A stretch of DNA of 36,457 bases from a virus (Duplodnaviria > Heunggongvirae > Uroviricota > Caudoviricetes), in the IMG/VR virus record IMGVR_UViG_2671180405_000008; one strand, 5' to 3'. Each line of letters opens with the position of its first letter. Position 1 is the first letter of the stretch. Of the stretch, positions 1 through 16,352 are shown piece by piece. Both the position numbers and the translations under genes were made by a program. The notes beneath the pieces were generated by a model that was given only the letters and a program-made list of their open reading frames with translations, made no database searches and was not told where the DNA came from.

Positions 1-66
1 GCCAATCAGCACGCTGAATCTCCCGTCCAAAAGCACAAATCATGCCATGCAGGCCAGAAACCGCCA

Positions 67-92
67 TTATCTAAAACCTCGGTTTACGAGAA
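67..92. repeat. Serine-invertase crossover site (gix/cix/hix-like 26-bp site), left end of invertible tail-fibre segment, inverted relative to the site at 2983-3008
   Basis: Sequence ttatctaaaacctcggtttacgagaa; its reverse complement ttctcgtaaaccgaggttttagataa matches the site at 2983-3008 at 22 of 26 positions and resembles the gix consensus from memory; an alternate tail-fibre reading frame opens immediately inside it. Confidence 0.6.
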
Positions 93-851
93 CTCGGCAC
101 AAGCGGGGAGAAAATACCGTTACTCAGTACAGCGAATACCTGGACTAATCGACAAACATTCAGCGGTGGCCTTTCTGGTGAACTATCCGGCAATGCTTCT
201 ACAGCTGCAAAATTAAAAACTGCCAGGAAAATAAGCAATGTGGCTTTTGATGGTTCCTCCGATATCACATTAAAAGCAAGTCATGTTGGTGCGTTTGCCT
301 TAGGGAAAACAGGAAGCACCGTTGCGAATGATAAAGCAGTTGGATGGAACTGGAGTAGCGGAGCCTATAACGCAACTATTAGTGGTGCATCAACGTTAAT
401 TATTCATTTTTATATGGGAGAAGGAAGTTGTCCTGCAGCTCAGTTTCGGATTAATTATAAAAATGGCGGTATTTTTTATCGTTCAGCCCGTGATGGTTAT
501 GGTTTTGAAGCCGACTGGTCCGAATTTTACACCACCAGAAAACCTTCAGCAGGAGATGTTGGTGCACTGCCGTTATCTGGTGGTCAACTGAATGGTGCAC
601 TGGGTATCGGAACATCCAGTGCTCTTGGCGGTAATTCGATTGTATTGGGTGATAATGACACGGGCTTTAAACAAAAAGGCGATGGTAATCTGGATGTTTA
701 TGCTAATAACGTCCATGTTATGCGCTTTGTCTCCGGAAGCATTCAAAGTAATAAAACCATAAATATTACGGGACGTGTTAATCCCTCGGATTACGGTAAC
801 TTTGATTCCCGCTATGTGAGAGATGTCAGACTTGGCACACGAGTTGTTTAG
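75..851 (+). CDS. Alternate tail-fibre C-terminal variable cassette (promoterless, silent orientation); reading frame continues through an in-frame TAG at 849-851 to a TAA at 999-1001
   Basis: Frame-3 translation from 75 reads NLGLRELGTS...NTWTNRQTFSGG...VAFDGSSDITLK...SRYVRDVRLGTRVV; the last 48 codons after the TAG (TMKKGVMYEKSGHVITGL...[17 protein letters not shown]) match the conserved P2 H-type C-terminus; no start codon, begins at the crossover site. Confidence 0.6.
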   Translation, partial: NLGLRELGTSGEKIPLLSTANTWTNRQTFSGGLSGELSGNASTAAKLKTARKISNVAFDGSSDITLKASHVGAFALGKTGSTVANDKAVGWNWSSGAYNATISGASTLIIHFYMGEGSCPAAQFRINYKNGGIFYRSARDGYGFEADWSEFYTTRKPSAGDVGALPLSGGQLNGALGIGTSSALGGNSIVLGDNDTGFKQKGDGNLDVYANNVHVMRFVSGSIQSNKTINITGRVNPSDYGNFDSRYVRDVRLGTRVV

Positions 852-1003
852 ACCATGAAGAAAGGCGTGATGTATGAAAAATCAGGCCATGTAATCACGG
901 GGCTTGGTATTATCGGTGAAGTCGATGGTGATGATCCGGCAGTATTCAGACCAATACAAAAGTTAATTAACGGAACATGGTATAACGTATCGCAGGTATA
1001 ATC

Positions 1004-1537
1004 ATGCAGCATTTAAAAAACATTGTCGCAGGTAATCCAAAAACCGTTGAACAATACCAGCTAACAAAGAATTTTGATGTTATCTGGTTATGGTCCGAAG
1101 ATGGAAAAAATTGGCATGAGGAATTAAAAAACTTTCAGGAGGATACAATAAAACTGGCTTACACAGTTGAGGGAATAATTATTGCTATAGACAAGGATGT
1201 ATCAGCAATTAATCCAGAAGGTTTAAGTGTCGTTGAGTTGCCTGATATTACAGCAAATCGCCGGGCTGATATTTCGGGCAACTGGATGTTCAAAGATGGT
1301 GCGGTGATAAAGCGAACTTATACCGAGGAAGAGCAAAGGCAACAAGCGGAAAATGAAAAGCAGAGCCTGCTGCAGCTCGTCAGGGATAAAACCCAGCTGT
1401 GGGACTCTCAGCTACAGCTGGGCATCATTTCCGATGAGAATAAACAAAAATTAACCGAGTGGATGCTCTATGCGCAGAAGGTTGAATCCACAGACACCTC
1501 CAGCCTGCCAGTAACGTTTCCCGAACAACCAGAATGA
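1004..1537 (+). CDS. Tail fibre assembly protein (Tfa, P2 G / Mu U-like), alternate-cassette copy
   Basis: 177 aa starting [14 protein letters not shown]; paralogous to the minus-strand Tfa at 1566-2093; sits directly after the tail-fibre cassette stop. Confidence 0.75.
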
Positions 1538-1541
1538 GAGA

Positions 1542-1568
1542 AGGCCCGCTATCGGGCCTTAATTTTTA
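1542..1568. terminator. Hairpin between convergent tfa genes, possible bidirectional rho-independent terminator
   Basis: aggcccgctatcgggcct stem-loop followed by taattttta, between the plus tfa stop (1537) and minus tfa stop (1566). Confidence 0.4.
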
Positions 1569-2093
1569 TTCAGGCTTTTGTGGCCATTCAGGATTTGCCG
1601 TATCCACACGGCTGACCAGAACACTGTAGCGTTCCCATGCTTCCAGTCGTGTGCGTTCCTCGTCCGTCGCCATATTCAGCCTGACAGCGCGTTCCAGCGG
1701 CTGGATGACTGATTCAGCTTCGGAAAGCAATGCGGCCTTTTGTGATTCGGCCTGTTGTTGCAGTTCCTGTTCTGTATATTCCCTCTTTACTACTTTACCA
1801 TCCAGAAACATCCATTTTCCGTTATTGTCTGCGTGACGATTTGCCGTAATATCAGGAACTTCAACTATGCTTAGCCCTTCAGGATTAATAGTTGAAACGT
1901 CTTTACTGACAGCAACGATGATGTTGTTCTCATCGTAAGCAATTTTTATGGTGTCTGGCTGAAAATTCTTTTGTTCCTCATACCAGTTTTTGCCATCTTC
2001 GCAAAAGAGCCATACCACGCCCGCTTTTTTAGTTAGCTGGTATTGTTCCGGTGTTTTCGGATTCCCGGCCTTAATATTTTTCAGGTGCATCAT
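1566..2093 (-). CDS. Tail fibre assembly protein (Tfa), expressed-orientation copy; start probably at the MMHLKN/MHLKN methionines (2093 or 2090) rather than 2129
   Basis: ORF translation [22 protein letters not shown]...; immediately downstream of the tail-fibre stop at 2095. Confidence 0.75.
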
Positions 2094-2094
2094 C

Positions 2095-4008
2095 TTAAAC
2101 ACTCCCCACGTTGTACCATATTCCCCCAATCAATTTCTGAATTGGCCTTCTGGCAACAGTGTCGACAATATCATCCGCATTGCTGTTAATTGCGGCTGTT
2201 AAAACATAACCTGACGCATCGCCAAAGCCGTAGTCGCGCCATACGTTTTTATATTCAATGCTGCCAAGACGAATATCCCGAACGACATGATTATGCAGCC
2301 ATGTGCTTAACCAGTTGTTTTCCCACACTGAACCATAAATATCGCCACTAGACGCAACTTGCGCACCACTTCCCAGCGCAAATCCCCCATCTGTTTTAAA
2401 AATGAAATCACCACCACCATCTGAACCGTTATTAATATGAACACCATCACCACCGTTATCTTTCCACAAAAACATACGAATTCTTCCGTCTTCGTTGGCG
2501 AATGTAATGTGGTGGCGGTAATTACTTTTTAATCTAAAATTGCTGCCATTAGATTCAATATCTTTATAAAGATGTAATCCTAACTCATCAATATGTCCGA
2601 TGCGCGAACCATTTGAATAGAAGCTAATAATACCATCTCCATCTTGCCTAAATCCGGTGTCGTTATCTCCCAGAACAATGGAGTTTTCACCCAGTGCGTT
2701 ATCAGTAGCTCCAATAGCTAGACCTCCTTTAATTTTGGCCCCGTGGCTGACAGATATAGCACCTGTTCTCAGATTTATAGCGAATGGCCTTAATGGGCCG
2801 ATATTACCGTTTTCGCCTTGTCCTTCAGCCGTCGGAATGAAATGAAGAAAATCTTCTGAACGACGGAAAATTAGACCGAAGGTATCATTGAAAATTCGCA
2901 GCGCATTCACCGTGCCAATTTTCAGTTCTCCGGTCATTTTATCGCCGGAACGCTGAACGGCGTTACCAGCCTTGTTTACCGTTTCCTGTAAACCGAGGTA
3001 TTCGATAACGGCGGCAACGGTCGATTTCGCAAGAATATCCCGCCCGACTTTTGTCAGGGTTGCCAGGCTGGCGACATCATTCCCCGTAAAATACGGAAAC
3101 CTGTCTGCCGCAGTAGCAAGCCCCGCCAGCGCCGTCAGAGTGGCATCTTTCGGTTGCTTACCCGCAAGCGCGTTAGTCATGGTGGTCGCAAAATTCGGGT
3201 CGTTGCCCAGCGCCGCCGCCAGCTCGTTCAGTGTGTTCAGTGCATCAGGCGAAGAGTCTACAAGTGCGGCAATCGCAGCCATAACGAAAGCCGTGCTTGC
3301 GATTTGGGTATTATTCGTTCCCTGTCGCGCAGTTGGTGTTGTTGGCGTTCCGGTCAGTGCCGGGCTGTTTAATGGGGCTTTCTTGTTCGTTTCATCCATT
3401 ACTGCCTTAACGGCTTTTGGTGTCGCTGCCAGCGTTTCAGACGTGCTGTTGGTGGCGTTGCTGAGCTGGACAAGGCCTTTTGCGGTCAGCGAGGCGTCCG
3501 GGTGACGTCGTGACTGTTCATGCTCTTTCAGTTTGTCATCCACGTAATTCACTGTGGCCATCACCATGGTGTTATCCACGGTAAGCGCCACAGTGGCAGT
3601 GCTGGATACGGTCAGAATGGTGCGAAATGTTTGTGCACGTCCGGATCCTTCGGCAACGGTTGGCTTGTAACTTTCGGCAGTATTGCCTACCGCGATCAAA
3701 TCGCCGTGCTCATCAAACACACCAATTTCCCGGATCCAGAATCCGCCCGTTTCAGGAGGAATAACCAGCTCCGCAATAATGTGGTTCTGATGTGTTGCGT
3801 CCAGGGTGACGCGATTAACGGTATGTCGCCACACCTCATGCACAAGACGGGTCTGCTTACTGTCTGGCGTGGGTAAAGTACCGCCGCCGTCACCCACGGC
3901 CATATGTGTCAGGCGGACAGGTTTCCCATCTGGCGCGGTTGCCTGCGCTAATTTTTTTGCACCCGTATCGGTGATAATGGTTTTAAATTTTCGTGTTGTG
4001 GTACTCAT
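2095..4008 (-). CDS. Tail fibre protein (P2 gpH-like), constant N-terminal part 3009-4008 fused to variable C-terminal cassette 2095-2982
   Basis: 637 aa; N-terminus [26 protein letters not shown]... and [16 protein letters not shown]...[21 protein letters not shown] match P2 H from memory; ends [17 protein letters not shown]. Confidence 0.85.
2983..3008. repeat. Serine-invertase crossover site inside the tail-fibre gene (boundary between constant and variable parts)
   Basis: ttcctgtaaaccgaggtattcgataa, gix-like; encodes VIEYLGLQE at the constant/variable boundary. Confidence 0.6.
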
Positions 4009-4010
4009 GC

Positions 4011-4574
4011 TTAATCGTCCGGATAAATGGTAATGACTTCACCGTCGTAAGTTGCTGCTGCCGCGAAAATATCTCCCTGAATCTCCTGAATGATATTCAG
4101 CCCTGTCATGTGGCGGCTGACCGGGCGGGCATCAGCAATCAACCGCTCCATTTCCAGATACATTTCCTCCGTCACGCCACTGTCCAGCGTGCCAACATCA
4201 ATCTTGAATGTTCCGGGTTCGCCGTTGAACTCCCACCACTCAGACACGCGAATGAGGTATCCCAGCGGCTCAATGGCCCGTCGCAGGGCGCTGATGGTTC
4301 CTTTGTGTCGGTGTATCAGCCATGCATCACGAATCACCTGTCGCTTTGTCTCTTCCGGCCAGTTGCGATCCCAGCGGTCAACGGAAAACGCCCAGGCGAG
4401 ATAAGGCAGCAGATGCACCGGGCAGGTGTCCGGCGACCACAGCGTGTTGAGGTCTGCCGGAATGTCTGTAATGCGTGTTCCGACGGCTTCGGCACAACGC
4501 ATGAAATTGCTGGCTGATGGTGGTAACAGTGAATTACTCATTACGCCCACCTTCGCTGATGGTGAATGACTCAC
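4011..4574 (-). CDS. Baseplate assembly protein I (P2 gpI-like); true start may be the internal MSNSLLPP methionine near 4541
   Basis: Translation with LLPYLAWAFSVDRWDRNWPE motif; position between J and H. Confidence 0.8.
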   Translation of the reverse strand: MSHSPSAKVGVMSNSLLPPSASNFMRCAEAVGTRITDIPADLNTLWSPDTCPVHLLPYLAWAFSVDRWDRNWPEETKRQVIRDAWLIHRHKGTISALRRAIEPLGYLIRVSEWWEFNGEPGTFKIDVGTLDSGVTEEMYLEMERLIADARPVSRHMTGLNIIQEIQGDIFAAAATYDGEVITIYPDD

Positions 4575-5430
4575 AGCGCGCCGCCTGTATGTCGCTGATG
4601 GCCATATTCTGTGTGGGTTCGATTATCTCCACGCGTTGCACACCGTGCACATGCAGTGCGGCAGCAATGGCGGACAACGCCACGTCCTGACCGATAAGCC
4701 CCTGCTCAGCCAGCCACTTCCTGAACGACGATTCAGCCGCAGCCAGAATAGGTTCGGATTCCGGACCGGGGTAAAAGTACAGTTTTGCATTCAGCCGCCA
4801 TGTCACGATTCTGGCACTCTGTACGGTCAGGCGGTCGGCCACCGGGCGGGTATCCTCTGCATTCAGAACGGCGCGAACGGTATTAAGCAACGCCTCCGTT
4901 GCTGTGCCGTCGCCCTCAGTGGACAGGATGGAAACCGTCACATTTGCCGGAGACGGACTGATGGCCCGCGCATCGCGCACCAGACCGCTGGCGCTGCGGG
5001 CAAAATACTCGTATGCGCCTGACGGGCCTGCAACACTCAGGCCGTCATACGCCCGCTGCGCCCGCAGTCTCAGCGAGGTGTCGTTCTCCATCACCACGTC
5101 GGTGGTATCCGTTGCCGGAGTGATAACCAGGCGCTTTGTGTTCATATTGCCCGCGAGGTTGTCCAGGTCTGTTCCGGCGCTGTGGCTCAACATGCAGGCG
5201 CGTGCGGCCTCATTGACCCGCTGGCGTAACAGCATTTCACGAAACGACATGGTTTGAGCGATAACGTTCAGGGGTTCCGATTCCAGTTCCAGTGCGGCGG
5301 AGACGACTTCACGCTGTTCGGCGGGATAAGCTGCAATCATCATGGCCTTTGTGTCAGCCAGAATTGCCTCAAAGTCAGGCTCCGCGATGATGGCGGGTTC
5401 CGGTAACTGGGAAAGGTCAACGGCAGGCAT
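4534..5430 (-). CDS. Baseplate assembly protein J (P2 gpJ-like)
   Basis: 298 aa, position between W and I in conserved P2 order. Confidence 0.8.
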   Translation of the reverse strand: MPAVDLSQLPEPAIIAEPDFEAILADTKAMMIAAYPAEQREVVSAALELESEPLNVIAQTMSFREMLLRQRVNEAARACMLSHSAGTDLDNLAGNMNTKRLVITPATDTTDVVMENDTSLRLRAQRAYDGLSVAGPSGAYEYFARSASGLVRDARAISPSPANVTVSILSTEGDGTATEALLNTVRAVLNAEDTRPVADRLTVQSARIVTWRLNAKLYFYPGPESEPILAAAESSFRKWLAEQGLIGQDVALSAIAAALHVHGVQRVEIIEPTQNMAISDIQAARCESFTISEGGRNE

Positions 5431-5433
5431 GAT

Positions 5434-5784
5434 TTACTCCCTCAGCGTGATGGTTAATTCAACATTCTGCATGGTCTGCATGACAGTGCCCGACAGCGTC
5501 ACCCCGGCGTGGCCTCCTGCCTTCCAGACAACGTCGATGGCGTTCAGGGCAATGCGTGGTTCCCATCGTGTCAGTGCAATCACGGTAGCACTCATGCATT
5601 GCAGACGCGTGGTGTTATTCATGGGTTCGTCAATCAAATCAGGCACAAGGCTGCCATATTCCCGTCGCATAACCCGGCTTGCCAGCGGGGTGGTCAGGAT
5701 GTCCCTGACTGACTGTTTCAGGTGCGCCATATCGTTCAGGTTTCCCGTCCCGTCCGGGTTCATTCCTGTGTAGCGGGTTGTCAC
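5434..5784 (-). CDS. Baseplate wedge protein W (P2 gpW / GPW-gp25 family)
   Basis: 116 aa, conserved position between V and J. Confidence 0.75.
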   Translation of the reverse strand: MTTRYTGMNPDGTGNLNDMAHLKQSVRDILTTPLASRVMRREYGSLVPDLIDEPMNNTTRLQCMSATVIALTRWEPRIALNAIDVVWKAGGHAGVTLSGTVMQTMQNVELTITLRE

Positions 5785-6362
5785 TGCGGGCCTCCTGTCG
5801 AATCGCTGCCACCTTTAACGCCACCGTGCTTATGCGTATGCACTGTGATGCCGTTTGAGGTGAAATCGCCGCCGCTGTGCGTGATATTGCCGCTCATCGT
5901 TCCCCCTTTTGTGACGTCAAGCGTCGCTGTTCTCAGAAGGTCTGTGCATTCCACGACAGGCGTGTTCAGTGTCACGCTGATGGATGCCTGCAAAGTGGCC
6001 GTTTTCATGCCGCTTGCGCTCAGTGCGCCTGCGTCCGCGTCGTAGCGGAACACCGCGCCGTCCGGCGCGCTGACCACGATTTCTTTCAGGCTTTTGCCGG
6101 GTGCCGGAATGGCATCACTCCACAGGCTGCCGATTATCATGGCGGTTTCCGGGTTGCCGCCGATGCAGGCAATTGCCACCTGTTCGCCTGGTGATGGCGG
6201 AAACCACACGTTGAAGTCTCCCGCGCGCGTGGTGTTCCAGCGCAGCCAGCCTGTTTCCAGTTCGCCGCTGCGAACGCGCACGCACCAGGATTCCTCATCA
6301 ACTTCAGAGATGATCCCGGTGCGGATGATATTGCTCAGCAGTCGCATGAGTTCTGCGCTCAT
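5781..6362 (-). CDS. Baseplate spike / assembly protein V (P2 gpV-like)
   Basis: 193 aa, conserved order S-V-W-J-I-H. Confidence 0.75.
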   Translation of the reverse strand: MSAELMRLLSNIIRTGIISEVDEESWCVRVRSGELETGWLRWNTTRAGDFNVWFPPSPGEQVAIACIGGNPETAMIIGSLWSDAIPAPGKSLKEIVVSAPDGAVFRYDADAGALSASGMKTATLQASISVTLNTPVVECTDLLRTATLDVTKGGTMSGNITHSGGDFTSNGITVHTHKHGGVKGGSDSTGGPQ

Positions 6363-6994
6363 CGTACAGCCTCCGCAATCCGGCCCAGCACCGTGTTATA
6401 AATCAGGCGCTCATCTGCCTGGCTGATACCCAGCAGCTCACGTACCGGGTAATCGGTGAAAATGCCCGGCGCAACCTGATCGCGCTCACCGAACTGATGA
6501 ACGCGTGCAATACGTGCGGCCACGCCGCTGTAACCCACCGTCACACCGGAAGCATCTGCACGGGCTTTCAGGTAGCGGGCGGTGCGCAGTTTTACGAACA
6601 TGGAGACGCGCCTGGTGCTGTCCTGGTTGATGCGCCGGGTGCGTATTTCCAGAAAACGGTCGATGTCATCCCGGTAAAACGTGCGGATATTGTTTTTATC
6701 CTCATCCCACCCGGTGATGGTTCGCCCGTATTTCCCCGTGTCGTGATGCCAGTTTTTCAGCGTGCGTGCTTCGTTATTCCAGATAAAGCGAATGCGCTCC
6801 TGTATCCGGGTTACGCGGCGTCTGCGTGGTGTCCATGCGGTCCCGTCCGGCGCTTTCTGTGACCGGATACGCGCCTGCTGGGCGCGGCGTAAATCCTGTG
6901 CCAGCTTTCTGGCGATGTTATTAATGGCCTGCTGATTCAGGCTGTCGCGGATAGCCTCAAAGGTTTCATCCACGCGGGTGAATGCCTTATCCAT
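6359..6994 (-). CDS. Putative tail completion / virion morphogenesis protein (gpS-position gene)
   Basis: 211 aa ORF between R (intact in the second copy) and V; assignment is by position, length differs from P2 S. Confidence 0.5.
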   Translation of the reverse strand: MDKAFTRVDETFEAIRDSLNQQAINNIARKLAQDLRRAQQARIRSQKAPDGTAWTPRRRRVTRIQERIRFIWNNEARTLKNWHHDTGKYGRTITGWDEDKNNIRTFYRDDIDRFLEIRTRRINQDSTRRVSMFVKLRTARYLKARADASGVTVGYSGVAARIARVHQFGERDQVAPGIFTDYPVRELLGISQADERLIYNTVLGRIAEAVR

Positions 6995-7068
6995 CGCTTT
7001 CCCCCCACGTCACATCCTGGAATACATGCGACCAGTCGCCTTCGGAAGAGGGCAGGCGGGGTTTTGGC

Positions 7069-8566
7069 TCAATCTTTATAAAGATGTAATCCTAACTCAT
7101 CAATATGTCCGATGCGCGAACCATTTGAATAGAAGCTAATAATACCATCTCCATCTTGCCTAAATCCGGTGTCGTTATCTCCCAGAACAATGGAGTTTTC
7201 ACCCAGTGCGTTATCAGTAGCTCCAATAGCTAGACCTCCTTTAATTTTGGCCCCGTGGCTGACAGATATAGCACCTGTTCTCAGATTTATAGCGAATGGC
7301 CTTAATGGGCCGATATTACCGTTTTCGCCTTGTCCTTCAGCCGTCGGAATGAAATGAAGAAAATCTTCTGAACGACGGAAAATTAGACCGAAGGTATCAT
7401 TGAAAATTCGCAGCGCATTCACCGTGCCAATTTTCAGTTCTCCGGTCATTTTATCGCCGGAACGCTGAACGGCGTTACCAGCCTTGTTTACCGTTTCCTG
7501 TAAACCGAGGTATTCGATAACGGCAGCAACGGTCGATTTCGCAAGAATATCCCGCCCGACTTTTGTCAGGGTTGCCAGGCTGGCGACATCATTCCCCGTA
7601 AAATACGGAAACCTGTCTGCCGCAGTAGTAAGTCCGGCCAGCGCCGTCAGGGTGGCATCTTTCGGTTGCTTACCCGCAAGCGCGTTAGTCATGGTGGTCG
7701 CAAAATTCGGGTCGTTGCCCAGCGCCGCAGCCAGCTCGTTCAGCGTGTTCAGTGCATCAGGTGACGAATCTACAAGGGCGGCAATCGCAGCCATAACGAA
7801 AGCCGTGCTTGCGATTTGGGTATTATTCGTTCCCTGTCGCGCAGTTGGTGTTGTTGGCGTTCCGGTCAGTGCAGGACTATTTAAGGGCGCTTTCTTGTTC
7901 GTTTCACCCATTACCGCCTTAACCGCTTTTGGCGTTGCCGCCAGTGACTCGGAAGTGCTGTTGGTCGCACTGCTGAGCTGTACTATCCCCTTTTTCGTCG
8001 TGCTCGCATCCTCAAGCGCCACGGCGGATGCAATATCCTCTGCCCGTTTTGCTGCTGTCTCGGCGCGCGTTGCCGCGGATTCAGCAGCAACTTTGCTCTG
8101 AGATGCAGCCGTCGCACTGCCTGCCGCCTCTGATGCTTTCGTTGTTGCTGTCGTGGCACTACCTTTCGCTGCTGACGCTTGTCTGGTCGCCTCATCTTTT
8201 GAAGCAGACGCAGATGATGCCGATGACGCCGCTGAACTGGCTGACGATGCGGCTGCTGCCTTAGAGGAAGCAGCATTGTCTGCTGAAGTCTTTGCATTTG
8301 TTTCAGAGGTTTTTGCTGCAGAAGCAGACCTCGCTGCTGCAGTGGCTTGCTCAGTGGCTTTGCCAGCCTTCGTTGTGGCTGTTGAAGCGGATGATGCGGC
8401 GCTTTCTGCCGATTTTCCGGCGGCGGTGGCACTGGCTGAGGCCTGCCCGGCACTTGTTGACGCGGCACTGGCAGATAATGCAGCCGCTGTTTTTGAACCT
8501 GCCGCAGCTGAGGCGCTCTGTCCCGCTGCTGTTTCAGAAGACTTAGCGTTCGTCTCGGACGTTTTA
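7069..8566 (-). pseudogene. Chimeric tail-fibre fragment: Ala/Ser/Thr-rich Stf-like repeats (8566-7980) fused to a diverged H-like constant region and a variable cassette identical to 2560-2982; N-terminus truncated by the IS, C-terminus truncated at the 7070/7072 junction
   Basis: ORF 7069-8598 translation; first 11 codons (MVVSAIASTPH) lie inside the IS terminal repeat; ends HLYKD exactly where homology to copy 1 stops. Confidence 0.6.
7494..7519. repeat. Third copy of the invertase crossover site, same orientation as 2983-3008
   Basis: Identical 26-mer ttcctgtaaaccgaggtattcgataa. Confidence 0.55.
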
Positions 8567-8609
8567 TGAGGTGTACTGGCAATAGCGGACACTACCATTT
8601 GTTCTTTTT

Positions 8610-9428
8610 TTAAGCAGCCATCTGATGATATTTTTCCCTGAAGGCTGCCGGGGAGATATTCCCCAGACGAGAGTGACGACGCTGACGATTGTAGAAAATC
8701 TCAATGTATTCCCGTATTACTGAGATGGCTTCATCCCGGTTATTAAAACGATAGTGGCTCAGGCTCTCATTTTTCAGCGTTCCCCAGAAGCTTTCCATCG
8801 GAGCGTTGTCGTAACAGTTACCTTTACGCGACATTGATGTTTTCAGACCAGACTGCTCCTGTATGACCCGGTAATCGTATGCGCAGTACTGTGAACCTCG
8901 ATCAGAGTGGTGGATTAGCCCGGCAGGTGGGCGCTGGCTCCTGAGCGCCATAAACAGGGCTTTACCTGTCAGCTCTTTTGTCATGCGCTCTCCCATGGCG
9001 TAGCCGACAATTTCGCACGTATAAACATCTTTGATGCCAGCGAGGTACAACCATCCCTCCTGTGTGGCAACATACGTCAGGTCCGCCACCCAGACCTGAT
9101 TTGGTGCTGTAGGAGCGAACGTCTGGTTCAGCAGATTTGGCGCAACTGGCAGATTGTGGTTCGAGTTCGTAGTCGCTCTGAACTTGCGTTTCTGCTTACA
9201 GCGTAGCCTTAGCTCCTTACGAAGACGTGCCAGTCGGTCACGACCAACGATGATGCCATTCTCTGCCAGCTCCGTCTGGAGCCGCCGGGTTCCATATGTT
9301 TCGCGAGTGCGGATATGTGCCACCTTAATCTCCAGTTTTAGCCGCTCATCACTTTGTTTTCTGTCTGAGGGTTCATGCTGTACCCAGTTGTAATAACCGC
9401 TCCTGGATACACCAAATACCTGACACAT
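8610..9428 (-). CDS. IS3-family transposase OrfB (DDE integrase domain)
   Basis: 272 aa; HSDRGSQY and NCYDNAPMESFWGTLK motifs typical of IS3-family OrfB. Confidence 0.85.
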   Translation of the reverse strand: MCQVFGVSRSGYYNWVQHEPSDRKQSDERLKLEIKVAHIRTRETYGTRRLQTELAENGIIVGRDRLARLRKELRLRCKQKRKFRATTNSNHNLPVAPNLLNQTFAPTAPNQVWVADLTYVATQEGWLYLAGIKDVYTCEIVGYAMGERMTKELTGKALFMALRSQRPPAGLIHHSDRGSQYCAYDYRVIQEQSGLKTSMSRKGNCYDNAPMESFWGTLKNESLSHYRFNNRDEAISVIREYIEIFYNRQRRHSRLGNISPAAFREKYHQMAA

Positions 9429-9463
9429 CGCTTCAATGGGAAATTGTTGTCGCCATTGTTCGA

Positions 9464-9766
9464 TTAACGCGTATTTTTCAGCGACTCCTGTGCAAAATAC
9501 GCTGTTGCTTTTTTTAATATATCTCGCTCAAGGCGAGCTTCATTTAACGCCTTACGCAGTTGCAGAATTTCAGATTCCAGTTCAGCCACCGTGCGGGAAC
9601 CAGGAGTACCGAGCCCTTTTCTGGCGGCGGTAACCCATTGTCCTAAAGTGCCTTCAGGAAGAGATAATCGGGAAGCGCCTTCACTGATCGAAAGTTGATT
9701 TTCAAGAACCGTTCTGACAGCTTCGGCTTTGAACTCTTTAGAGTAACGTTGGGTTTTTCTGCTCAT
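9464..9766 (-). CDS. IS3-family transposase OrfA (HTH, leucine-zipper part)
   Basis: 100 aa MSRKTQRYSKEFKAEAVRTV..., recalled as IS600 OrfA. Confidence 0.85.
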   Translation of the reverse strand: MSRKTQRYSKEFKAEAVRTVLENQLSISEGASRLSLPEGTLGQWVTAARKGLGTPGSRTVAELESEILQLRKALNEARLERDILKKATAYFAQESLKNTR

Positions 9767-9827
9767 TATTAGCTCCTTCTGATGCCATTCTATTTCAGGA
9801 AGGAGTGTCCGTTAAACTCAGGCTACC

Positions 9828-11537
9828 TCACTCTGACCAGTCAGCTTCAAAGCCATAACCATCACGCGCTGAACGATAAAAAATACCGCCGTTCCTGTAA
9901 TTCACGCGGAACTGTACAGCAGGGCAGCTCCCCGTATTCATATTGAAGTGGAGGATTAATGTCGATGCGCCACCAATGTTTGCGTTATAGACCCCGCTAT
10001 TCCAGTTCCAGCCAACAGCTTTATCATTTCCGACAGTGCTTCCTGTTTGCCCTAAAGCAAATGCAGGTTGTTGATTTTTCGTGTTGTAGTCTCGTCGCCA
10101 GCCAGGAGCGTAAGCATCACCATGATTAATATAAGTGAATTGAGCGTTAGTAATTCCGCCACCGCTGGACGTGCTCGGCGTGGTAACGCGTATGGTCATT
10201 GCGCCGCGAGTGCCAATAACTTCCACCACAGCACCTGCAAGACAAATATTTCCGCAACCTGTATCTGTAATGACCTTATTATTTGCATAAGCCCATGAGC
10301 CTTTGCACATCCAGTAAGGATGGTTAAATGCTCCCTGACTCTCCAGCCACGAAATAAATTGCGCGGTTGTCCAGACCTGACTATCGCCACCAATATTCAG
10401 CCATGAGCTATATGCGCGGCAGGCACCAATATTTTTGGTGAAGGTATCTTTCCCCGGAATATCTGCGCCGTTCTGGTTTTTCTGTAATGCGCCAGAAGCC
10501 TGATTTACCGTTTCCTGTAAACCGAGGTATTCGATAACGGCAGCAACGGTCGATTTCGCAAGAATATCCCGCCCGACTTTTGTCAGGGTTGCCAGGCTGG
10601 CGACATCATTCCCCGTAAAATACGGAAACCTGTCTGCCGCAGTAGCAAGCCCCGCCAGCGCCGTCAGAGTGGCATCTTTCGGTTGCTTACCCGCAAGCGC
10701 GTTAGTCATGGTGGTCGCAAAATTCGGGTCGTTGCCCAGCGCCGCCGCCAGCTCGTTCAGTGTGTTCAGTGCATCAGGCGAAGAGTCTACAAGTGCGGCA
10801 ATCGCAGCCATAACGAAAGCCGTGCTTGCGATTTGGGTATTATTCGTTCCCTGTCGCGCAGTTGGTGTTGTTGGCGTTCCGGTCAGTGCCGGGCTGTTTA
10901 ATGGGGCTTTCTTGTTCGTTTCATCCATTACTGCCTTAACGGCTTTTGGTGTCGCTGCCAGCGTTTCAGACGTGCTGTTGGTGGCGTTGCTGAGCTGGAC
11001 AAGGCCTTTTGCGGTCAGCGAGGCGTCCGGGTGACGTCGTGACTGTTCATGCTCTTTCAGTTTGTCATCCACGTAATTCACTGTGGCCATCACCATGGTG
11101 TTATCCACGGTAAGCGCCACAGTGGCAGTGCTGGATACGGTCAGAATGGTGCGAAATGTTTGTGCACGTCCGGATCCTTCGGCAACGGTTGGCTTGTAAC
11201 TTTCGGCAGTATTGCCTACCGCGATCAAATCGCCGTGCTCATCAAACACACCAATTTCCCGGATCCAGAATCCGCCCGTTTCAGGAGGAATAACCAGCTC
11301 CGCAATAATGTGGTTCTGATGTGTTGCGTCCAGGGTGACGCGATTAACGGTATGTCGCCACACCTCATGCACAAGACGGGTCTGCTTACTGTCTGGCGTG
11401 GGTAAAGTACCGCCGCCGTCACCCACGGCCATATGTGTCAGGCGGACAGGTTTCCCATCTGGCGCGGTTGCCTGCGCTAATTTTTTTGCACCCGTATCGG
11501 TGATAATGGTTTTAAATTTTCGTGTTGTGGTACTCAT
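9828..11537 (-). CDS. Tail fibre protein H, second copy, with a different variable C-terminal cassette that is cut by the IS insertion (stop codon formed at the IS boundary)
   Basis: 569 aa; identical to copy 1 up to LGLQETVN then diverges; C-terminal ...GGIFYRSARDGYGFEADWSE matches the silent cassette at 75-851 up to the IS joint. Confidence 0.75.
   Translation of the reverse strand: MSTTTRKFKTIITDTGAKKLAQATAPDGKPVRLTHMAVGDGGGTLPTPDSKQTRLVHEVWRHTVNRVTLDATHQNHIIAELVIPPETGGFWIREIGVFDEHGDLIAVGNTAESYKPTVAEGSGRAQTFRTILTVSSTATVALTVDNTMVMATVNYVDDKLKEHEQSRRHPDASLTAKGLVQLSNATNSTSETLAATPKAVKAVMDETNKKAPLNSPALTGTPTTPTARQGTNNTQIASTAFVMAAIAALVDSSPDALNTLNELAAALGNDPNFATTMTNALAGKQPKDATLTALAGLATAADRFPYFTGNDVASLATLTKVGRDILAKSTVAAVIEYLGLQETVNQASGALQKNQNGADIPGKDTFTKNIGACRAYSSWLNIGGDSQVWTTAQFISWLESQGAFNHPYWMCKGSWAYANNKVITDTGCGNICLAGAVVEVIGTRGAMTIRVTTPSTSSGGGITNAQFTYINHGDAYAPGWRRDYNTKNQQPAFALGQTGSTVGNDKAVGWNWNSGVYNANIGGASTLILHFNMNTGSCPAVQFRVNYRNGGIFYRSARDGYGFEADWSE
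10511..10536. repeat. Fourth copy of the invertase crossover site, same orientation as 2983-3008; coincides with the left edge of the second 4.1 kb repeat
   Basis: Identical 26-mer; homology between the two blocks starts here. Confidence 0.55.
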
Positions 11538-11539
11538 GC

Positions 11540-12103
11540 TTAATCGTCCGGATAAATGGTAATGACTTCACCGTCGTAAGTTGCTGCTGCCGCGAAAATA
11601 TCTCCCTGAATCTCCTGAATGATATTCAGCCCTGTCATGTGGCGGCTGACCGGGCGGGCATCAGCAATCAACCGCTCCATTTCCAGATACATTTCCTCCG
11701 TCACGCCACTGTCCAGCGTGCCAACATCAATCTTGAATGTTCCGGGTTCGCCGTTGAACTCCCACCACTCAGACACGCGAATGAGGTATCCCAGCGGCTC
11801 AATGGCCCGTCGCAGGGCGCTGATGGTTCCTTTGTGTCGGTGTATCAGCCATGCATCACGAATCACCTGTCGCTTTGTCTCTTCCGGCCAGTTGCGATCC
11901 CAGCGGTCAACGGAAAACGCCCAGGCGAGATAAGGCAGCAGATGCACCGGGCAGGTGTCCGGCGACCACAGCGTGTTGAGGTCTGCCGGAATGTCTGTAA
12001 TGCGTGTTCCGACGGCTTCGGCACAACGCATGAAATTGCTGGCTGATGGTGGTAACAGTGAATTACTCATTACGCCCACCTTCGCTGATGGTGAATGACT
12101 CAC
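11540..12103 (-). CDS. Baseplate assembly protein I, second copy
   Basis: Protein identical to 4011-4574. Confidence 0.8.
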   Translation of the reverse strand: MSHSPSAKVGVMSNSLLPPSASNFMRCAEAVGTRITDIPADLNTLWSPDTCPVHLLPYLAWAFSVDRWDRNWPEETKRQVIRDAWLIHRHKGTISALRRAIEPLGYLIRVSEWWEFNGEPGTFKIDVGTLDSGVTEEMYLEMERLIADARPVSRHMTGLNIIQEIQGDIFAAAATYDGEVITIYPDD

Positions 12104-12959
12104 AGCGCGCCGCCTGTATGTCGCTGATGGCCATATTCTGTGTGGGTTCGATTATCTCCACGCGTTGCACACCGTGCACATGCAGTGCGGCAGCAATGGC
12201 GGACAACGCCACGTCCTGACCGATAAGCCCCTGCTCAGCCAGCCACTTCCTGAACGACGATTCAGCCGCAGCCAGAATAGGTTCGGATTCCGGACCGGGG
12301 TAAAAGTACAGTTTTGCATTCAGCCGCCATGTCACGATTCTGGCACTCTGTACGGTCAGGCGGTCGGCCACCGGGCGGGTATCCTCTGCATTCAGAACGG
12401 CGCGAACGGTATTAAGCAACGCCTCCGTTGCTGTGCCGTCGCCCTCAGTGGACAGGATGGAAACCGTCACATTTGCCGGAGACGGACTGATGGCCCGCGC
12501 ATCGCGCACCAGACCGCTGGCGCTGCGGGCAAAATACTCGTATGCGCCTGACGGGCCTGCAACACTCAGGCCGTCATACGCCCGCTGCGCCCGCAGTCTC
12601 AGCGAGGTGTCGTTCTCCATCACCACGTCGGTGGTATCCGTTGCCGGAGTGATAACCAGGCGCTTTGTGTTCATATTGCCCGCGAGGTTGTCCAGGTCTG
12701 TTCCGGCGCTGTGGCTCAACATGCAGGCGCGTGCGGCCTCATTGACCCGCTGGCGTAACAGCATTTCACGAAACGACATGGTTTGAGCGATAACGTTCAG
12801 GGGTTCCGATTCCAGTTCCAGTGCGGCGGAGACGACTTCACGCTGTTCGGCGGGATAAGCTGCAATCATCATGGCCTTTGTGTCAGCCAGAATTGCCTCA
12901 AAGTCAGGCTCCGCGATGATGGCGGGTTCCGGTAACTGGGAAAGGTCAACGGCAGGCAT
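12063..12959 (-). CDS. Baseplate assembly protein J, second copy
   Basis: Protein identical to 4534-5430. Confidence 0.8.
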   Translation of the reverse strand: MPAVDLSQLPEPAIIAEPDFEAILADTKAMMIAAYPAEQREVVSAALELESEPLNVIAQTMSFREMLLRQRVNEAARACMLSHSAGTDLDNLAGNMNTKRLVITPATDTTDVVMENDTSLRLRAQRAYDGLSVAGPSGAYEYFARSASGLVRDARAISPSPANVTVSILSTEGDGTATEALLNTVRAVLNAEDTRPVADRLTVQSARIVTWRLNAKLYFYPGPESEPILAAAESSFRKWLAEQGLIGQDVALSAIAAALHVHGVQRVEIIEPTQNMAISDIQAARCESFTISEGGRNE

Positions 12960-12962
12960 GAT

Positions 12963-13313
12963 TTACTCCCTCAGCGTGATGGTTAATTCAACATTCTGCA
13001 TGGTCTGCATGACAGTGCCCGACAGCGTCACCCCGGCGTGGCCTCCTGCCTTCCAGACAACGTCGATGGCGTTCAGGGCAATGCGTGGTTCCCATCGTGT
13101 CAGTGCAATCACGGTAGCACTCATGCATTGCAGACGCGTGGTGTTATTCATGGGTTCGTCAATCAAATCAGGCACAAGGCTGCCATATTCCCGTCGCATA
13201 ACCCGGCTTGCCAGCGGGGTGGTCAGGATGTCCCTGACTGACTGTTTCAGGTGCGCCATATCGTTCAGGTTTCCCGTCCCGTCCGGGTTCATTCCTGTGT
13301 AGCGGGTTGTCAC
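12963..13313 (-). CDS. Baseplate wedge protein W, second copy
   Basis: Protein identical to 5434-5784. Confidence 0.75.
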   Translation of the reverse strand: MTTRYTGMNPDGTGNLNDMAHLKQSVRDILTTPLASRVMRREYGSLVPDLIDEPMNNTTRLQCMSATVIALTRWEPRIALNAIDVVWKAGGHAGVTLSGTVMQTMQNVELTITLRE

Positions 13314-13891
13314 TGCGGGCCTCCTGTCGAATCGCTGCCACCTTTAACGCCACCGTGCTTATGCGTATGCACTGTGATGCCGTTTGAGGTGAAATCGCCG
13401 CCGCTGTGCGTGATATTGCCGCTCATCGTTCCCCCTTTTGTGACGTCAAGCGTCGCTGTTCTCAGAAGGTCTGTGCATTCCACGACAGGCGTGTTCAGTG
13501 TCACGCTGATGGATGCCTGCAAAGTGGCCGTTTTCATGCCGCTTGCGCTCAGTGCGCCTGCGTCCGCGTCGTAGCGGAACACCGCGCCGTCCGGCGCGCT
13601 GACCACGATTTCTTTCAGGCTTTTGCCGGGTGCCGGAATGGCATCACTCCACAGGCTGCCGATTATCATGGCGGTTTCCGGGTTGCCGCCGATGCAGGCA
13701 ATTGCCACCTGTTCGCCTGGTGATGGCGGAAACCACACGTTGAAGTCTCCCGCGCGCGTGGTGTTCCAGCGCAGCCAGCCTGTTTCCAGTTCGCCGCTGC
13801 GAACGCGCACGCACCAGGATTCCTCATCAACTTCAGAGATGATCCCGGTGCGGATGATATTGCTCAGCAGTCGCATGAGTTCTGCGCTCAT
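13310..13891 (-). CDS. Baseplate spike protein V, second copy
   Basis: Protein identical to 5781-6362. Confidence 0.75.
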   Translation of the reverse strand: MSAELMRLLSNIIRTGIISEVDEESWCVRVRSGELETGWLRWNTTRAGDFNVWFPPSPGEQVAIACIGGNPETAMIIGSLWSDAIPAPGKSLKEIVVSAPDGAVFRYDADAGALSASGMKTATLQASISVTLNTPVVECTDLLRTATLDVTKGGTMSGNITHSGGDFTSNGITVHTHKHGGVKGGSDSTGGPQ

Positions 13892-14523
13892 CGTACAGCC
13901 TCCGCAATCCGGCCCAGCACCGTGTTATAAATCAGGCGCTCATCTGCCTGGCTGATACCCAGCAGCTCACGTACCGGGTAATCGGTGAAAATGCCCGGCG
14001 CAACCTGATCGCGCTCACCGAACTGATGAACGCGTGCAATACGTGCGGCCACGCCGCTGTAACCCACCGTCACACCGGAAGCATCTGCACGGGCTTTCAG
14101 GTAGCGGGCGGTGCGCAGTTTTACGAACATGGAGACGCGCCTGGTGCTGTCCTGGTTGATGCGCCGGGTGCGTATTTCCAGAAAACGGTCGATGTCATCC
14201 CGGTAAAACGTGCGGATATTGTTTTTATCCTCATCCCACCCGGTGATGGTTCGCCCGTATTTCCCCGTGTCGTGATGCCAGTTTTTCAGCGTGCGTGCTT
14301 CGTTATTCCAGATAAAGCGAATGCGCTCCTGTATCCGGGTTACGCGGCGTCTGCGTGGTGTCCATGCGGTCCCGTCCGGCGCTTTCTGTGACCGGATACG
14401 CGCCTGCTGGGCGCGGCGTAAATCCTGTGCCAGCTTTCTGGCGATGTTATTAATGGCCTGCTGATTCAGGCTGTCGCGGATAGCCTCAAAGGTTTCATCC
14501 ACGCGGGTGAATGCCTTATCCAT
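13888..14523 (-). CDS. Putative tail completion / virion morphogenesis protein (gpS-position), second copy
   Basis: Protein identical to 6359-6994. Confidence 0.5.
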   Translation of the reverse strand: MDKAFTRVDETFEAIRDSLNQQAINNIARKLAQDLRRAQQARIRSQKAPDGTAWTPRRRRVTRIQERIRFIWNNEARTLKNWHHDTGKYGRTITGWDEDKNNIRTFYRDDIDRFLEIRTRRINQDSTRRVSMFVKLRTARYLKARADASGVTVGYSGVAARIARVHQFGERDQVAPGIFTDYPVRELLGISQADERLIYNTVLGRIAEAVR

Positions 14524-14983
14524 CGCTTTCCCCCCACGTCACATCCTGGAATACATGCGACCAGTCGCCTTCGGAAGAGGGCAGGCGGGGTTTTGGCTCC
14601 GGCAGGTGTTCTGCCTGCGGTGTGCCCTGACTGCTGCGCGTGATGCGAACGCGTTCCCGCAGGGGGAGCGTAAACAGGAGATCGGCGCTGTCATCGTCAT
14701 TGATAACGGCGGAAAATTTGATGTCCTGATTACGCTCCGGATTGAGCAACAACTGTGGCTGATTTTCGGATAACCACGCCAGCAGCGGCAGCGTGAGGTC
14801 GTCCAGCTCTCCGGCGTAATCCATGACAAACATCACTATCTGATAGCGGTAAACAAACGATGGGGTTTCTCCGGTCGTTTCAATGTTGCCGCTCTCCACG
14901 AAAATGGTGAATTTTTCCGGGTTGGCATGACACCACCGGCATGAACGGGTCATGGCTTCACGCAGGGAATCAGTTTTCAGCAT
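14516..14983 (-). CDS. Tail completion protein R (P2 gpR-like)
   Basis: 155 aa MLKTDSLREAMT...; position between lysis genes and S; only its last ~80 bp are present in the first repeat copy (6987-7070). Confidence 0.65.
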   Translation of the reverse strand: MLKTDSLREAMTRSCRWCHANPEKFTIFVESGNIETTGETPSFVYRYQIVMFVMDYAGELDDLTLPLLAWLSENQPQLLLNPERNQDIKFSAVINDDDSADLLFTLPLRERVRITRSSQGTPQAEHLPEPKPRLPSSEGDWSHVFQDVTWGESDG

Positions 14984-15290
14984 GGTTGTTGTCCTCGTTG
15001 TTCAGTCGTTGCAGCCTGCGCTGTTCCAGTAATTCAATGGCCCGCTTATCGGCGTTACAGGTTTCCAGTGCGTCCATGAGGCTGTCGCTCCATATCCCGA
15101 TGTTTCCCCATGATGGCGTCACCGGAAACGGCGGGGGAAGTACGGGGGCGGTCAGCCCTTCCGGGATGAAACGGAACGACGGCGGCGGCGCGGACGCGTT
15201 CTGCGTGCTGGTGCAACCGCTCAGTAAAGCGAGCGTCAGGAACAGCGCGGGCACATGCATCTGTCGTGATATCGTTGCGTAGCTGTTCAC
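14970..15290 (-). CDS. Outer-membrane spanin lipoprotein (LysC/Rz1-like), starts inside the LysB gene in another frame
   Basis: Lipobox ALFLTLALLSGC followed by Pro-rich region; true start probably the internal MHVPALF methionine. Confidence 0.5.
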   Translation of the reverse strand: MNSYATISRQMHVPALFLTLALLSGCTSTQNASAPPPSFRFIPEGLTAPVLPPPFPVTPSWGNIGIWSDSLMDALETCNADKRAIELLEQRRLQRLNNEDNNHAEN

Positions 15291-15528
15291 GTCGGATTTC
15301 CCCTTCCTGTTGTCGGTTCTGGCGCGCTGTCATGACGTCACGCAGTACACCGGATGCGGTGCTGATGATGGTGCCGGCCTCTTTCAGGGTCCGGCTGTAA
15401 TCGTCCAGTTGCGCCTGTGTATAACGGTTGTGTCCGTCTTCCTGCCCCAGTCTGAATGTCTGCCAGAGTGTTATGGTCAGCAGCGTGAGGACGGTCAGTG
15501 CCATCATCAGGATGTAACGCACTTTCAT
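15055..15528 (-). CDS. Inner-membrane spanin (LysB/Rz-like)
   Basis: N-terminal transmembrane helix MKVRYILMMALTVLTLLTITLW then charged coiled-coil-like region; overlaps the lipoprotein ORF. Confidence 0.55.
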   Translation of the reverse strand: MKVRYILMMALTVLTLLTITLWQTFRLGQEDGHNRYTQAQLDDYSRTLKEAGTIISTASGVLRDVMTARQNRQQEGEIRREQLRNDITTDACARAVPDARFTERLHQHAERVRAAAVVPFHPGRADRPRTSPAVSGDAIMGKHRDMERQPHGRTGNL

Positions 15529-15613
15529 GACTGGCCTCCGGTGTCACGTAAGCACCATGCACGAAAATCAGTACGACGGTTAACCAGTCCCTGTGAGCGT
15601 TCGCCGCCGCTGT

Positions 15614-16069
15614 TCACGAAGTCAGTCTGTTGCACATGTCAGGCCAGTTGTGCGCCTGTGCATGTTTCCAGATAGTGGTGCGGTGGTAGTTACGGTTCTT
15701 ATCCCTGAACCACATAAGATTTCTGCATCCAAGATTAAAGGCGGCATCTGTCATTGCCTCAAACGCGGACTGTGGCATGGCGTTGCCGCTGAAGTTCTGA
15801 TTTATGCAGTTTTCTGCATGTTGCATATCATTAACCCAGCGCCCGGCGACTTCCGTTTCGGTGTACAGACGATTTTCCACATGCCCGGTCGAGCCGCACC
15901 CCACGGTCATTACCCCGGCAATATCCCGGTAAGGCGTTGCGCGACAGTCCTCCCATGTGGCAATGCGGATTTGCGCTTCCGGGCTGGTCCGGAGTTTGTG
16001 AGGGGCAATGGAGAACCCCAGCGCCACAATGGCGGCTACGGCGTAACGTTTAACGGGCAGCTTTATCAT
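15614..16069 (-). CDS. Endolysin, T4-lysozyme-like (GH24), probable signal-arrest-release (SAR) type
   Basis: E-x8-D-x5-T catalytic spacing in ATWEDCRATPYRDIAGVMTVGCGST; weakly hydrophobic Ala/Gly-rich N-terminus AVAAIVALGFSIA. Confidence 0.7.
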   Translation of the reverse strand: MIKLPVKRYAVAAIVALGFSIAPHKLRTSPEAQIRIATWEDCRATPYRDIAGVMTVGCGSTGHVENRLYTETEVAGRWVNDMQHAENCINQNFSGNAMPQSAFEAMTDAAFNLGCRNLMWFRDKNRNYHRTTIWKHAQAHNWPDMCNRLTS

Positions 16070-16352
16070 GTGTATCGTTATCCCGCAGAATGTTCAGAGC
16101 CTGACGCTCACTGTCGTGAAGTGGCCGTGCGTCTGACTGCGCCAGGATACTGGCGATGAGTTCATTGCGACGCTGCATGGCGGTTTCCATCAGGCGGCGA
16201 TGTCGCCAGGCATGTAATGCAGACAGAGAACCGAGTAACAACCCGGCAAGGGCGATTTTTTCACTGATGGTCATCACGCCTATTGTGGTGGCTGTGACTG
16301 ATGCCCAGAAGGTGATCCAGTCACTCACCCGCAGAAAAAAACCTGTTACCAT
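16050..16352 (-). CDS. Holin (two predicted TM helices; possibly pinholin partner of the SAR endolysin); start taken at internal MVTGFF methionine
   Basis: Hydrophobic segments WITFWASVTATTIGVMTI and IALAGLLLGSLSALHAW; position between X and endolysin. Confidence 0.5.
   Translation of the reverse strand: MVTGFFLRVSDWITFWASVTATTIGVMTISEKIALAGLLLGSLSALHAWRHRRLMETAMQRRNELIASILAQSDARPLHDSERQALNILRDNDTHDKAAR

Follow-up and report, generated by a model that had tools for sequence, protein, structure and literature searches.

The near-perfect 4.1 kb duplication of the baseplate and tail fiber genes in the 36,457 bp stretch of DNA analyzed here (the window) is, at a probability that we put at about 0.8, a scaffolding and gap-filling artifact of a short-read draft assembly. 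Copy 2 of the repeat (Table 1) is probably real and present only once in the genome, and the stretch of copy 1 from about position 3013/3117 to 7070 probably arose when one contig (K2) was greedily over-extended into this single real copy. The prophage itself is P88-like (P2-family) and adjoins btuC, its end being followed by the host genes btuC/btuE/btuD. It has the same gene order as Escherichia phage P88 / Xuanwuvirus (P2-like Peduoviridae), with ca. 95% DNA identity across the structural genes. The tail sheath-to-U genes run opposite to H; a rearrangement was considered here and rejected, since this is the usual order in P88-like prophages.

Extent and content of the repeat

Self-BLAST of the window recovered both copies as an ungapped match of 4103 bp at 99.93% identity with an offset of 7529, confirming the two near-identical direct repeats of about 4.1 kb described in a sequence-only reading of this DNA. 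A base-by-base comparison found three mismatches, at 2973, 2974 and 3013, and the 4057 bp from 3014 to 7070 are 100% identical to the second copy. The single nucleotide difference reported in that reading (ggcggcaacgg versus ggcagcaacgg) is thus the one at 3013 (G versus A), the sole mismatch from 2975 onward. The gene content that it listed (S, V, W, J and I, with the constant region of the tail fiber gene H) agrees with the Pfam hits, and the repeat also takes in a remnant of R. Its two edges held as well: the left one lies about 20 bp from the center of an invertase crossover site (TTCCTGTAAACCGAGGT), and the right one falls inside R, of which only the last 84 bp are left in copy 1. The argument that so perfect a repeat must be recent fails, because such identity can also arise from the same reads having been used twice.

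There is in addition a partial third copy, in which 7072-7980 matches 2560-3468. This match is identical through 3012, has one mismatch through 3116 and drops to 93.8% identity past 3116. The G found at 3013 in copy 1 is also the allele of the P88-type H of a closed genome (L001). Copy 2 is continuous with the remaining prophage, the translation running without X across 14599/14600, and the region 10497-22000 is 99.88% identical to L001.

Table 1. Coordinates of the scaffold parts, repeats, genes and recombination sites in the window
Feature	Coordinates	Strand	Content or basis
Contig K2	1-7070	.	Three-part scaffold, ends at N; gene content. Order: invertase pseudogene start, inverted crossover site, Hv'_a, two tail fiber assembly genes, Hv_a, crossover site, constant part of H, I, J, W, V, S, last 84 bp of R, N
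Inverted crossover site	76-92	-	2 mismatches
gp37_C	240-851		Pfam
Caudo_TAP (two genes)	1004-1537 and 1566-2129		Pfam
Repeat copy 1	2968-7070	-	Self-BLAST identity; end coincides with N
Gin/Pin-type crossover site core	2983-2999	+	Core of the 26-bp site 2983-3008
Scaffold joint 1	7071	.	'n' in public record, A in window
Contig K3	7072-8565	-	Lambdoid Stf fragment, crossover site, first 453 bp of Hv_a
Identical crossover sites	7495-7511 and 10512-10528	+	Direct orientation with 2983
Scaffold joint 2	8566	.	'n' in public record, A in window, at IS600 terminus
IS600	8567-9830	-	HTH_Tnp_1 and rve domains, ends, annotation in relatives
H of repeat copy 2	9828-11537	-	Constant part, crossover site, Hv_b cassette cut by IS600; 569 aa
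Repeat copy 2	10497-14599	-	N-free continuity with prophage; L001 alignment
H N-terminal ~340 codons	within repeat		Pfam
I	11540-12070		Pfam
J	12063-12959		Pfam
W/gp25	12963-13313		Pfam
Baseplate V	13310-13891		Pfam
Phage_tail_S	13888-14523		Pfam
GpR	14516-14983		Pfam
Remaining P88-like prophage	14600-36457	.	Lysis, head, terminase, portal, ParM-like gene, replication gene A, integrase; then host btuC/btuE/btuD

Joints in the deposited record

By exact-protein match, the window corresponds to the complete draft contig CXBQ01000042.1 of assembly GCA_001250835.1. In the deposited record, two of the bases that the window shows as A are 'n': 7071 (14467 in L003), in the context tataaagatNgagccaaaac, and 8566 (12972 in L003), in the context cacctcaNaaaacg. 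These give the only two X in the translation of the deposited record over window positions 1-21537. The A shown at 7071 fits neither parent sequence (there is a C in R at 14600 and a T in Hv_a at 2559), and the flanks of this joint share no homology. A putative microhomology ('TC' plus a 2-bp slip) was rejected as over-reading, the central base being N. Since both positions are N, the window consists of three contigs placed end to end (1-7070, 7072-8565 and 8567-36457), and the repeat is a property of the scaffold and not of a contiguous sequence. The two copies do not lie in one uninterrupted contig, as both joints separate them, and the sequenced new junction that a genuine tandem duplication requires was not found at 7071, where the junction base is 'n'. 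The gene call of the collection spans 7071 and gives a 361-aa gene, consistent with an N at this point. A 509-aa open reading frame that ends at the joint has no exact protein on record, because that gene call reads through the N to yield the 361-aa product.

The second joint lies at the end of an IS600 element (IS3 family) of 1264 bp, with orfA/orfB and imperfect terminal inverted repeats beginning TGAGGT. The 3-bp target duplication is absent here: the flanking bases are TTA and CTC, and the third base of TTA (8566) is the 'n' of the record. Among closed relatives, IS600 occupies several different places in the same prophage.

Crossover sites and the invertible tail fiber segment

The crossover site, which we take to match the gix/cix half-site, was found four times in the window against 0.03 occurrences expected by chance. 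The two sites in inverted orientation (76-92 and 2983-2999) bracket the gp37_C domain, the two Caudo_TAP genes and the C terminus of H. This is the arrangement of the Mu G segment with Gin, the P1 C segment with Cin, the e14 P segment with Pin and the Min system of plasmid p15B, in which a 26-bp site joins a constant N-terminal part to alternative C-terminal cassettes, each with its own assembly gene in opposite orientation. Unlike in the Gin, Cin and Pin systems, the invertase gene lies beyond position 1 of the window, which ends 12 nt into it. Two sister draft assemblies (L006 and L007) have a truncated remnant at the same place, and relatives carry an intact Resolvase plus HTH_7 invertase beside their own segment. 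The three direct sites give the window the look of a multi-site system such as Min of p15B, but this is a product of the scaffold, the closed relatives having an ordinary segment of two sites and four genes.

Both flip states of the segment are present among closed genomes with the same prophage. Closed genomes show Hv_a to be a genuine cassette of P88-like prophages, and the silent cassette that adjoins the invertase in L001 matches Hv_b at 99.6% identity. The 569-aa H in which Hv_b is cut by IS600 has an exact counterpart in one other draft assembly (CXBK), and four draft assemblies show the join of H through the crossover site to Hv_a (a 637-aa H) with no N in it. Around the crossover site, 142 bp are common to the lambdoid Stf and the prophage H.

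Closed genomes and sister draft assemblies

An identical I protein was found in seven complete chromosomes and one 1.3-Mb contig, one of the matching records (CP026836.1) also having an identical 940-aa A protein. In each of these eight, R-S-V-W-J-I-H occurs as one block and is followed by one invertible segment of four genes, in either flip state (H of 678 or 656 aa). L001, L002 and L009 have one copy of the block each, and no second block was seen among all the inspected closed genomes with this prophage. With one baseplate block in the P88-like closed relatives, the second one in the window is unsupported and does not amount to a real difference. The 7070/7072 joint and both IS600 joints occur in none of 5426 complete E. 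coli genomes, and neither IMG/VR nor the GTDB representative genomes contain an exact copy of the joint as written in the window (A at 7071); the searches for the 7070/7072 joint are less informative than first thought, because the joint base is an N.

The sister drafts of this locus contain N, NN and N8 joints at differing and arbitrary points. L006 has a single N between G_a plus 85 bp and the interior of I, another one after the G_c terminator and NN before the stretch TAP_b-Hv_b-cix'-invertase. In L007, NNNNNNNN precedes a second I'-H, and in L004 a single N directly follows the end of IS600 and a run of N lies inside Stf. The extra piece of the block varies as well, being 4.1 kb here and, as estimated from coordinates, about 1.3 kb in L006 and about 1.6 kb in L007. 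The two alleles of position 3013 are distributed inconsistently across these assemblies. Stf adjoins lom and lambda-J-like genes in L004 and L006. All four combinations of H or Stf with Hv_a or Hv_b are present among the sister drafts.

Origin of the duplicated block

Of the three origins proposed from the sequence alone, namely an assembly artifact, the fusion of two related prophages or a very recent duplication, the N joints, the sister drafts and the single-copy closed genomes favor the first. The genome would contain one P88-like prophage whose H ends at a Gin/Pin-type crossover site, together with an Stf that shares the 142 bp found there, so that short reads would be unable to pair an upstream H or Stf with a downstream Hv_a or Hv_b. 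Across these 142 bp, the Stf contig was probably the true neighbor of the one that ends in Hv_a. This is suggested by the fact that the adjacent pieces can be superimposed, 7072-7628 of K3 overlapping 2560-3116 of K2 with one mismatch and in the same orientation and order. The scaffolder would have joined K2 and K3, and a greedy gap filler, missing the closure, would have extended both edges into the supposed gap. K3 would have grown by 0.45 kb into Hv_a and K2 by 4.1 kb on the H path, past I, J, W, V and S and on into R, rewriting sequence that belongs to the third contig (K1', 8567-36457). Greedy extension would explain why one end of the repeat is the crossover site, where the paths diverge, and the other an arbitrary stop in R.

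A widely used pipeline of this kind runs Velvet, then 16 rounds of SSPACE and then GapFiller for 120 iterations, with only the non-properly-paired reads as input to the latter, and its authors describe these tools as 'greedy algorithms' capable of false joins (PMC5320598). The accession style and the pattern of N suggest that this pipeline may have built GCA_001250835.1; a literature search with the accession numbers returned no paper. As in false joins made by SSPACE and GapFiller, the joints here consist of single or few N at contig ends, IS600 is complete to its last base and then followed by N, the sequence beside the joints duplicates other sequence of the scaffold and the break points fall arbitrarily, at different places in different sisters. 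Unlike in a typical over-extension, the 4.1 kb added are unusually long. The model by itself also leaves unexplained why H was chosen over Stf at the first differing base (3117). Furthermore, given the N-free H-Hv_a joins and the genuine nature of the Hv_a cassette, the culture may in fact contain H-Hv_a molecules, so that a real second copy or recombinant subpopulations are conceivable.

The subpopulations are possible, if rather unlikely. An invertase recombining sites within or between the P88-like and the lambdoid loci would provide a culture with H-Hv_a, H-Hv_b, Stf-Hv_a and possibly Stf-Hv_b molecules, two of these isomers having been written one after the other. The coincidence of the repeat edge with the crossover site, the two flip states of the closed genomes and the four combinations of the sister drafts are consistent with this, and gap filling restricted to non-properly-paired reads (PMC5320598) would enrich minority isomers. 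It would still be an assembly artifact as regards copy number and overlaps in this respect with the preferred explanation, and mis-threading through the shared 142 bp gives the same joins without any recombination. In addition, Gin-family invertases usually recombine inverted sites on one supercoiled molecule near an enhancer. A real but non-tandem second block, that is, an intact prophage and a separate remnant (e.g., bounded by IS600) threaded into one chain, appears improbable. The pieces fit equally well an intact prophage (U1, block, crossover site, Hv_a onward) plus an IS600-bounded piece in the order Stf, crossover site, Hv_a', R'..H, crossover site, Hv_b'; such remnants are plausible given the several locations of IS600 in closed relatives, and the G/A difference at 3013 could mark two real copies. 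However, this still needs a real junction between 2560 in Hv_a and 14599 in R, exactly where the N sits, the second block appears in no closed relative and the inconsistency of the 3013 alleles across sisters is what would be expected if the 142 bp had been filled from mixed reads.

The least credible origin, and to our minds a very improbable one, is a recent tandem duplication of a 7529-bp unit (from the interior of R to 453 bp into Hv_a) by illegitimate recombination, after which the downstream copy would have lost 3017 bp by deletion between two crossover sites in direct orientation. The arithmetic fits (7529 = 4512 + 3017), the identity over 4057 bp is perfect and the order of the parts can be derived in these two steps from an ancestor with H, crossover site, Hv_b', IS600, 'Stf, crossover site and Hv_a. 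This two-step model was nevertheless set aside because both joints that it requires are N. In the case of the defining junction, reads spanning a real one would trivially close a gap of 0-1 base. The other, the IS600/Stf joint of the ancestor, is further disfavored by L004, in which the upstream side of the same Stf leads into lom and J without an IS in between. In the sisters, moreover, duplications would have to have arisen independently, with other end points and every one of them joined by N.

Implications

Altogether, the duplication is probably not a real feature, and most likely one baseplate and tail fiber block has been written twice by the assembly software. Displayed as A, the source N concealed two scaffold joints, and a chain of scaffolded pieces came to resemble a perfect 4.1 kb duplication; long perfect repeats in draft contigs should therefore be checked for N in the deposited record before they are interpreted. 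As for the biology, an ordinary P88-like element with an ordinary invertible tail fiber segment, interrupted by IS600, is what remains, and the repeat matters little. It is conceivable, at long odds, that the hybrid joins are real and that one serine invertase swaps C-terminal receptor-binding cassettes between the co-resident P88-like myovirus and lambdoid prophages. H-Hv_a, H-Hv_b and Stf-Hv_a would then have been present in the culture, and Stf-Hv_b in a sister strain, the assembler having caught several isomers. To date, mosaic sequences have been the main grounds for inferring an exchange of tail fiber cassettes between prophages, and such joins, if true, would represent this exchange between unrelated resident prophages in real time.

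The repeat and the joints of the contig

When the window was compared with itself, the two copies of the baseplate and tail fiber block were 99.93% identical over 4103 bp without gaps, with mismatches at 2973, 2974 and 3013 only and complete identity from 3014 to 7070. By Pfam, the block contains the genes S, V, W, J and I, preceded by the final 84 bp of R and followed by the first ca. 340 codons of the tail fiber gene H. Both results agree with the ca. 4.1 kb direct repeats described in the sequence-only reading, and the window text does contain the repeat as described. There is also a partial third copy, in which 7072-7980 repeats 2560-3468 (offset 4512), identical up to 3012, with one mismatch up to 3116 and with 93.8% identity past this point. 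The Gin/Pin-type crossover core TTCCTGTAAACCGAGGT has four copies in the window, where 0.03 would be expected by chance.

Coordinates of the main features in the window
Feature	Position	Strand or orientation	Remark
Block, copy 1	2968-7070		
Block, copy 2	10497-14599		
Crossover core, direct copies	2983, 7495, 10512	same orientation	match to TTCCTGTAAACCGAGGT
Crossover core, inverted copy	76-92	opposite orientation	two mismatches
IS600, complete	8567-9830		
Cassette Hv_b	9831-10496		
Lysozyme gene	15614-16069	minus	151 aa
ParM/StbA-like actin-type segregation protein	24678-25637	minus	319 aa, early region

Exact-protein look-ups identified the window as the entire 36457-bp contig CXBQ01000042.1 of the draft assembly GCA_001250835.1. 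The deposited contig has an 'n' at the duplication joint (its position 14467, window 7071), where it reads '...ctttataaagatNgagccaaaacccc...', and a second one at its position 12972 (window 8566), which coincides exactly with the outer IS600 end. At 7071 the window shows a plus-strand A that matches neither parent sequence, and the gene call of the collection reads through it as through an N. These two were the only X noticed in the translation of window 1-21537. Therefore, the window is a scaffold of three pieces, K2 (1-7070), K3 (7072-8565) and K1' (8567-36457), each separated from the next by an N, and copy 1 is linked to the rest by no sequenced molecule.

Closed relatives

The element is a P2-family prophage by its Pfam domains, ca. 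95% identical to Escherichia phage P88 (Xuanwuvirus), and adjoins btuC-btuE-btuD. The prophage of the closed genome FDAARGOS_943 is 99.9% identical to the window over 10497-22000; it has a single R-S-V-W-J-I-H block, after which come an invertible segment of four genes and a serine invertase. An identical I protein is encoded by seven complete chromosomes and one 1.3-Mb contig (in one of these genomes, CP026836.1, the 940-aa replication protein is identical too). In all of them the R-S-V-W-J-I-H block and the invertible segment are single; among them the segment occurs in both flip states (H of 678 or 656 aa), and IS600 copies lie at varied places. Among 5426 complete E. coli genomes no match was found to the 7070/7072 joint or to either IS600 joint.

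Some other genes deserve mention. The ParM/StbA-like gene is followed downstream by a Plasmid_stab_B protein gene; this plasmid-style partition pair, here in an integrated P2-family prophage, is conserved in many genomes. The lysozyme is equally short in the sister draft locus L004 vs 181-182 aa in closed relatives, which could reflect truncation, a frameshift or an error in the draft sequence.

The IS600 copy lacks a 3-bp target duplication, its flanks being TTA and CTC (8566, the final base of TTA, is the 'n' of the record), and its terminal repeat provides the first 10 codons of a 509-aa ORF (8598 downward). The junction of H and the truncated Hv_b with IS600 appears also in L004, followed there by an N and 'J-lom-Stf (Stf being the lambdoid side tail fiber gene). 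The closed loci of CP026836.1, CP032523.1 and CP044191.1 have one or two IS600 in or beside the invertible tail fiber segment (at ca. 12.5-17 kb of each locus), at positions different from that of the window, for example between Hv_b and the invertase or within an assembly gene. These insertions probably lock the segment in one orientation.

Origin of the second copy

A recent duplication, a prophage fusion and an assembly artifact had all been proposed for the repeat. Reads would cross the junction of a genuine tandem duplication and would have closed any gap of zero to one base. We consider it quite probable (roughly 0.8) that the 4.1 kb duplication is not real, and that one baseplate and tail fiber block was written twice in the scaffold, its joints masked by the change of N to A.

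Sister drafts contain comparable breaks. In L006 one N separates 'G_a + 85 bp' from the interior of gene I, another directly follows the G_c terminator, and NN precedes TAP_b (a tail fiber assembly gene), Hv_b, a crossover site and the invertase. L007 has eight Ns ahead of a second I'-H, and L004 has one N directly after the IS600 end, before its different partner, and an N run within Stf. The piece of the H-I block written again beside an N measures 4.1 kb in the window and, estimated from coordinates, ca. 1.3 kb in L006 and ca. 1.6 kb in L007. All these drafts break at arbitrary points. The G/A difference at 3013 falls within 142 bp common to H and Stf and is assigned inconsistently among the sister assemblies.

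The left 557 bp of K3 (453 bp of the cassette Hv_a, crossover site and flank) equal K2 2560-3116 in the same orientation. Superimposing K3 on K2 yields an ordinary lambdoid tail fiber gene in the order Stf, crossover site, Hv_a and assembly gene. The original contigs, one ending near 3000 and the other starting near 7600, were therefore probably real neighbors, with nothing between them but the 142-bp sequence that H has too. In joining them a scaffolder would have left a small gap, and a greedy gap filler that missed the closure would have kept extending both edges. The Stf edge would have grown into Hv_a, to 7072, while the Hv_a edge, once past the shared 142 bp, would have taken the route of H and run across I, J, W, V and S until it stopped in R at 7070. 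One repeat end would then be the crossover site because the alternatives diverge there, extension by the gap filler would explain the arbitrary end in R, and reuse of the same reads would account for the identity of the copies. An IS600 complete to its last base and followed by N is likewise typical of read walking, which halts once the many IS copies lead into differing flanks. One pipeline in wide use works in this manner, combining Velvet with 16 SSPACE rounds and 120 GapFiller iterations, the latter on non-properly-paired reads only; its authors caution that the greedy steps of the pipeline 'can lead to false joins' (PMC5320598). We infer that GCA_001250835.1 was built by such a Velvet/SSPACE/GapFiller-type pipeline; a literature search for the assembly accession gave no match.

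Tail fiber cassettes

Hv_b, the cassette joined to H in copy 2 and interrupted by IS600, shares 99.6% identity with the silent cassette beside the invertase of FDAARGOS_943. A different cassette, Hv_a, is joined to H in copy 1, and P88-like prophages in closed genomes have it as well. In its N-terminal part, the product of the ORF at 7069-8598 is rich in Ala and Ser, as is typical for lambdoid side tail fibers, and in sister loci the same gene comes after lom and a lambda-J-like gene. Past the inverted crossover site, where L006 and L007 (13900-14440) continue beyond the left end of the window, these contigs hold no intact invertase but a truncated remnant interrupted by in-frame stops, which suggests that the Hv_a module came from another element, perhaps the lambdoid prophage.

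Since the H-crossover-Hv_a join is N-free in four drafts and Hv_a is a genuine cassette of the P88 type, molecules with this join may exist. Possible sources are an invertase rearranging the sites, a second, remnant copy, or Hv_a being the true partner of H with the join of H and the truncated Hv_b to IS600 mis-threaded. None of the three makes the tandem arrangement of the window real. The masking of n as A, which produced a false stop codon on the minus strand (7069-7071) and concealed the scaffold joints, may likewise affect other windows from draft assemblies.
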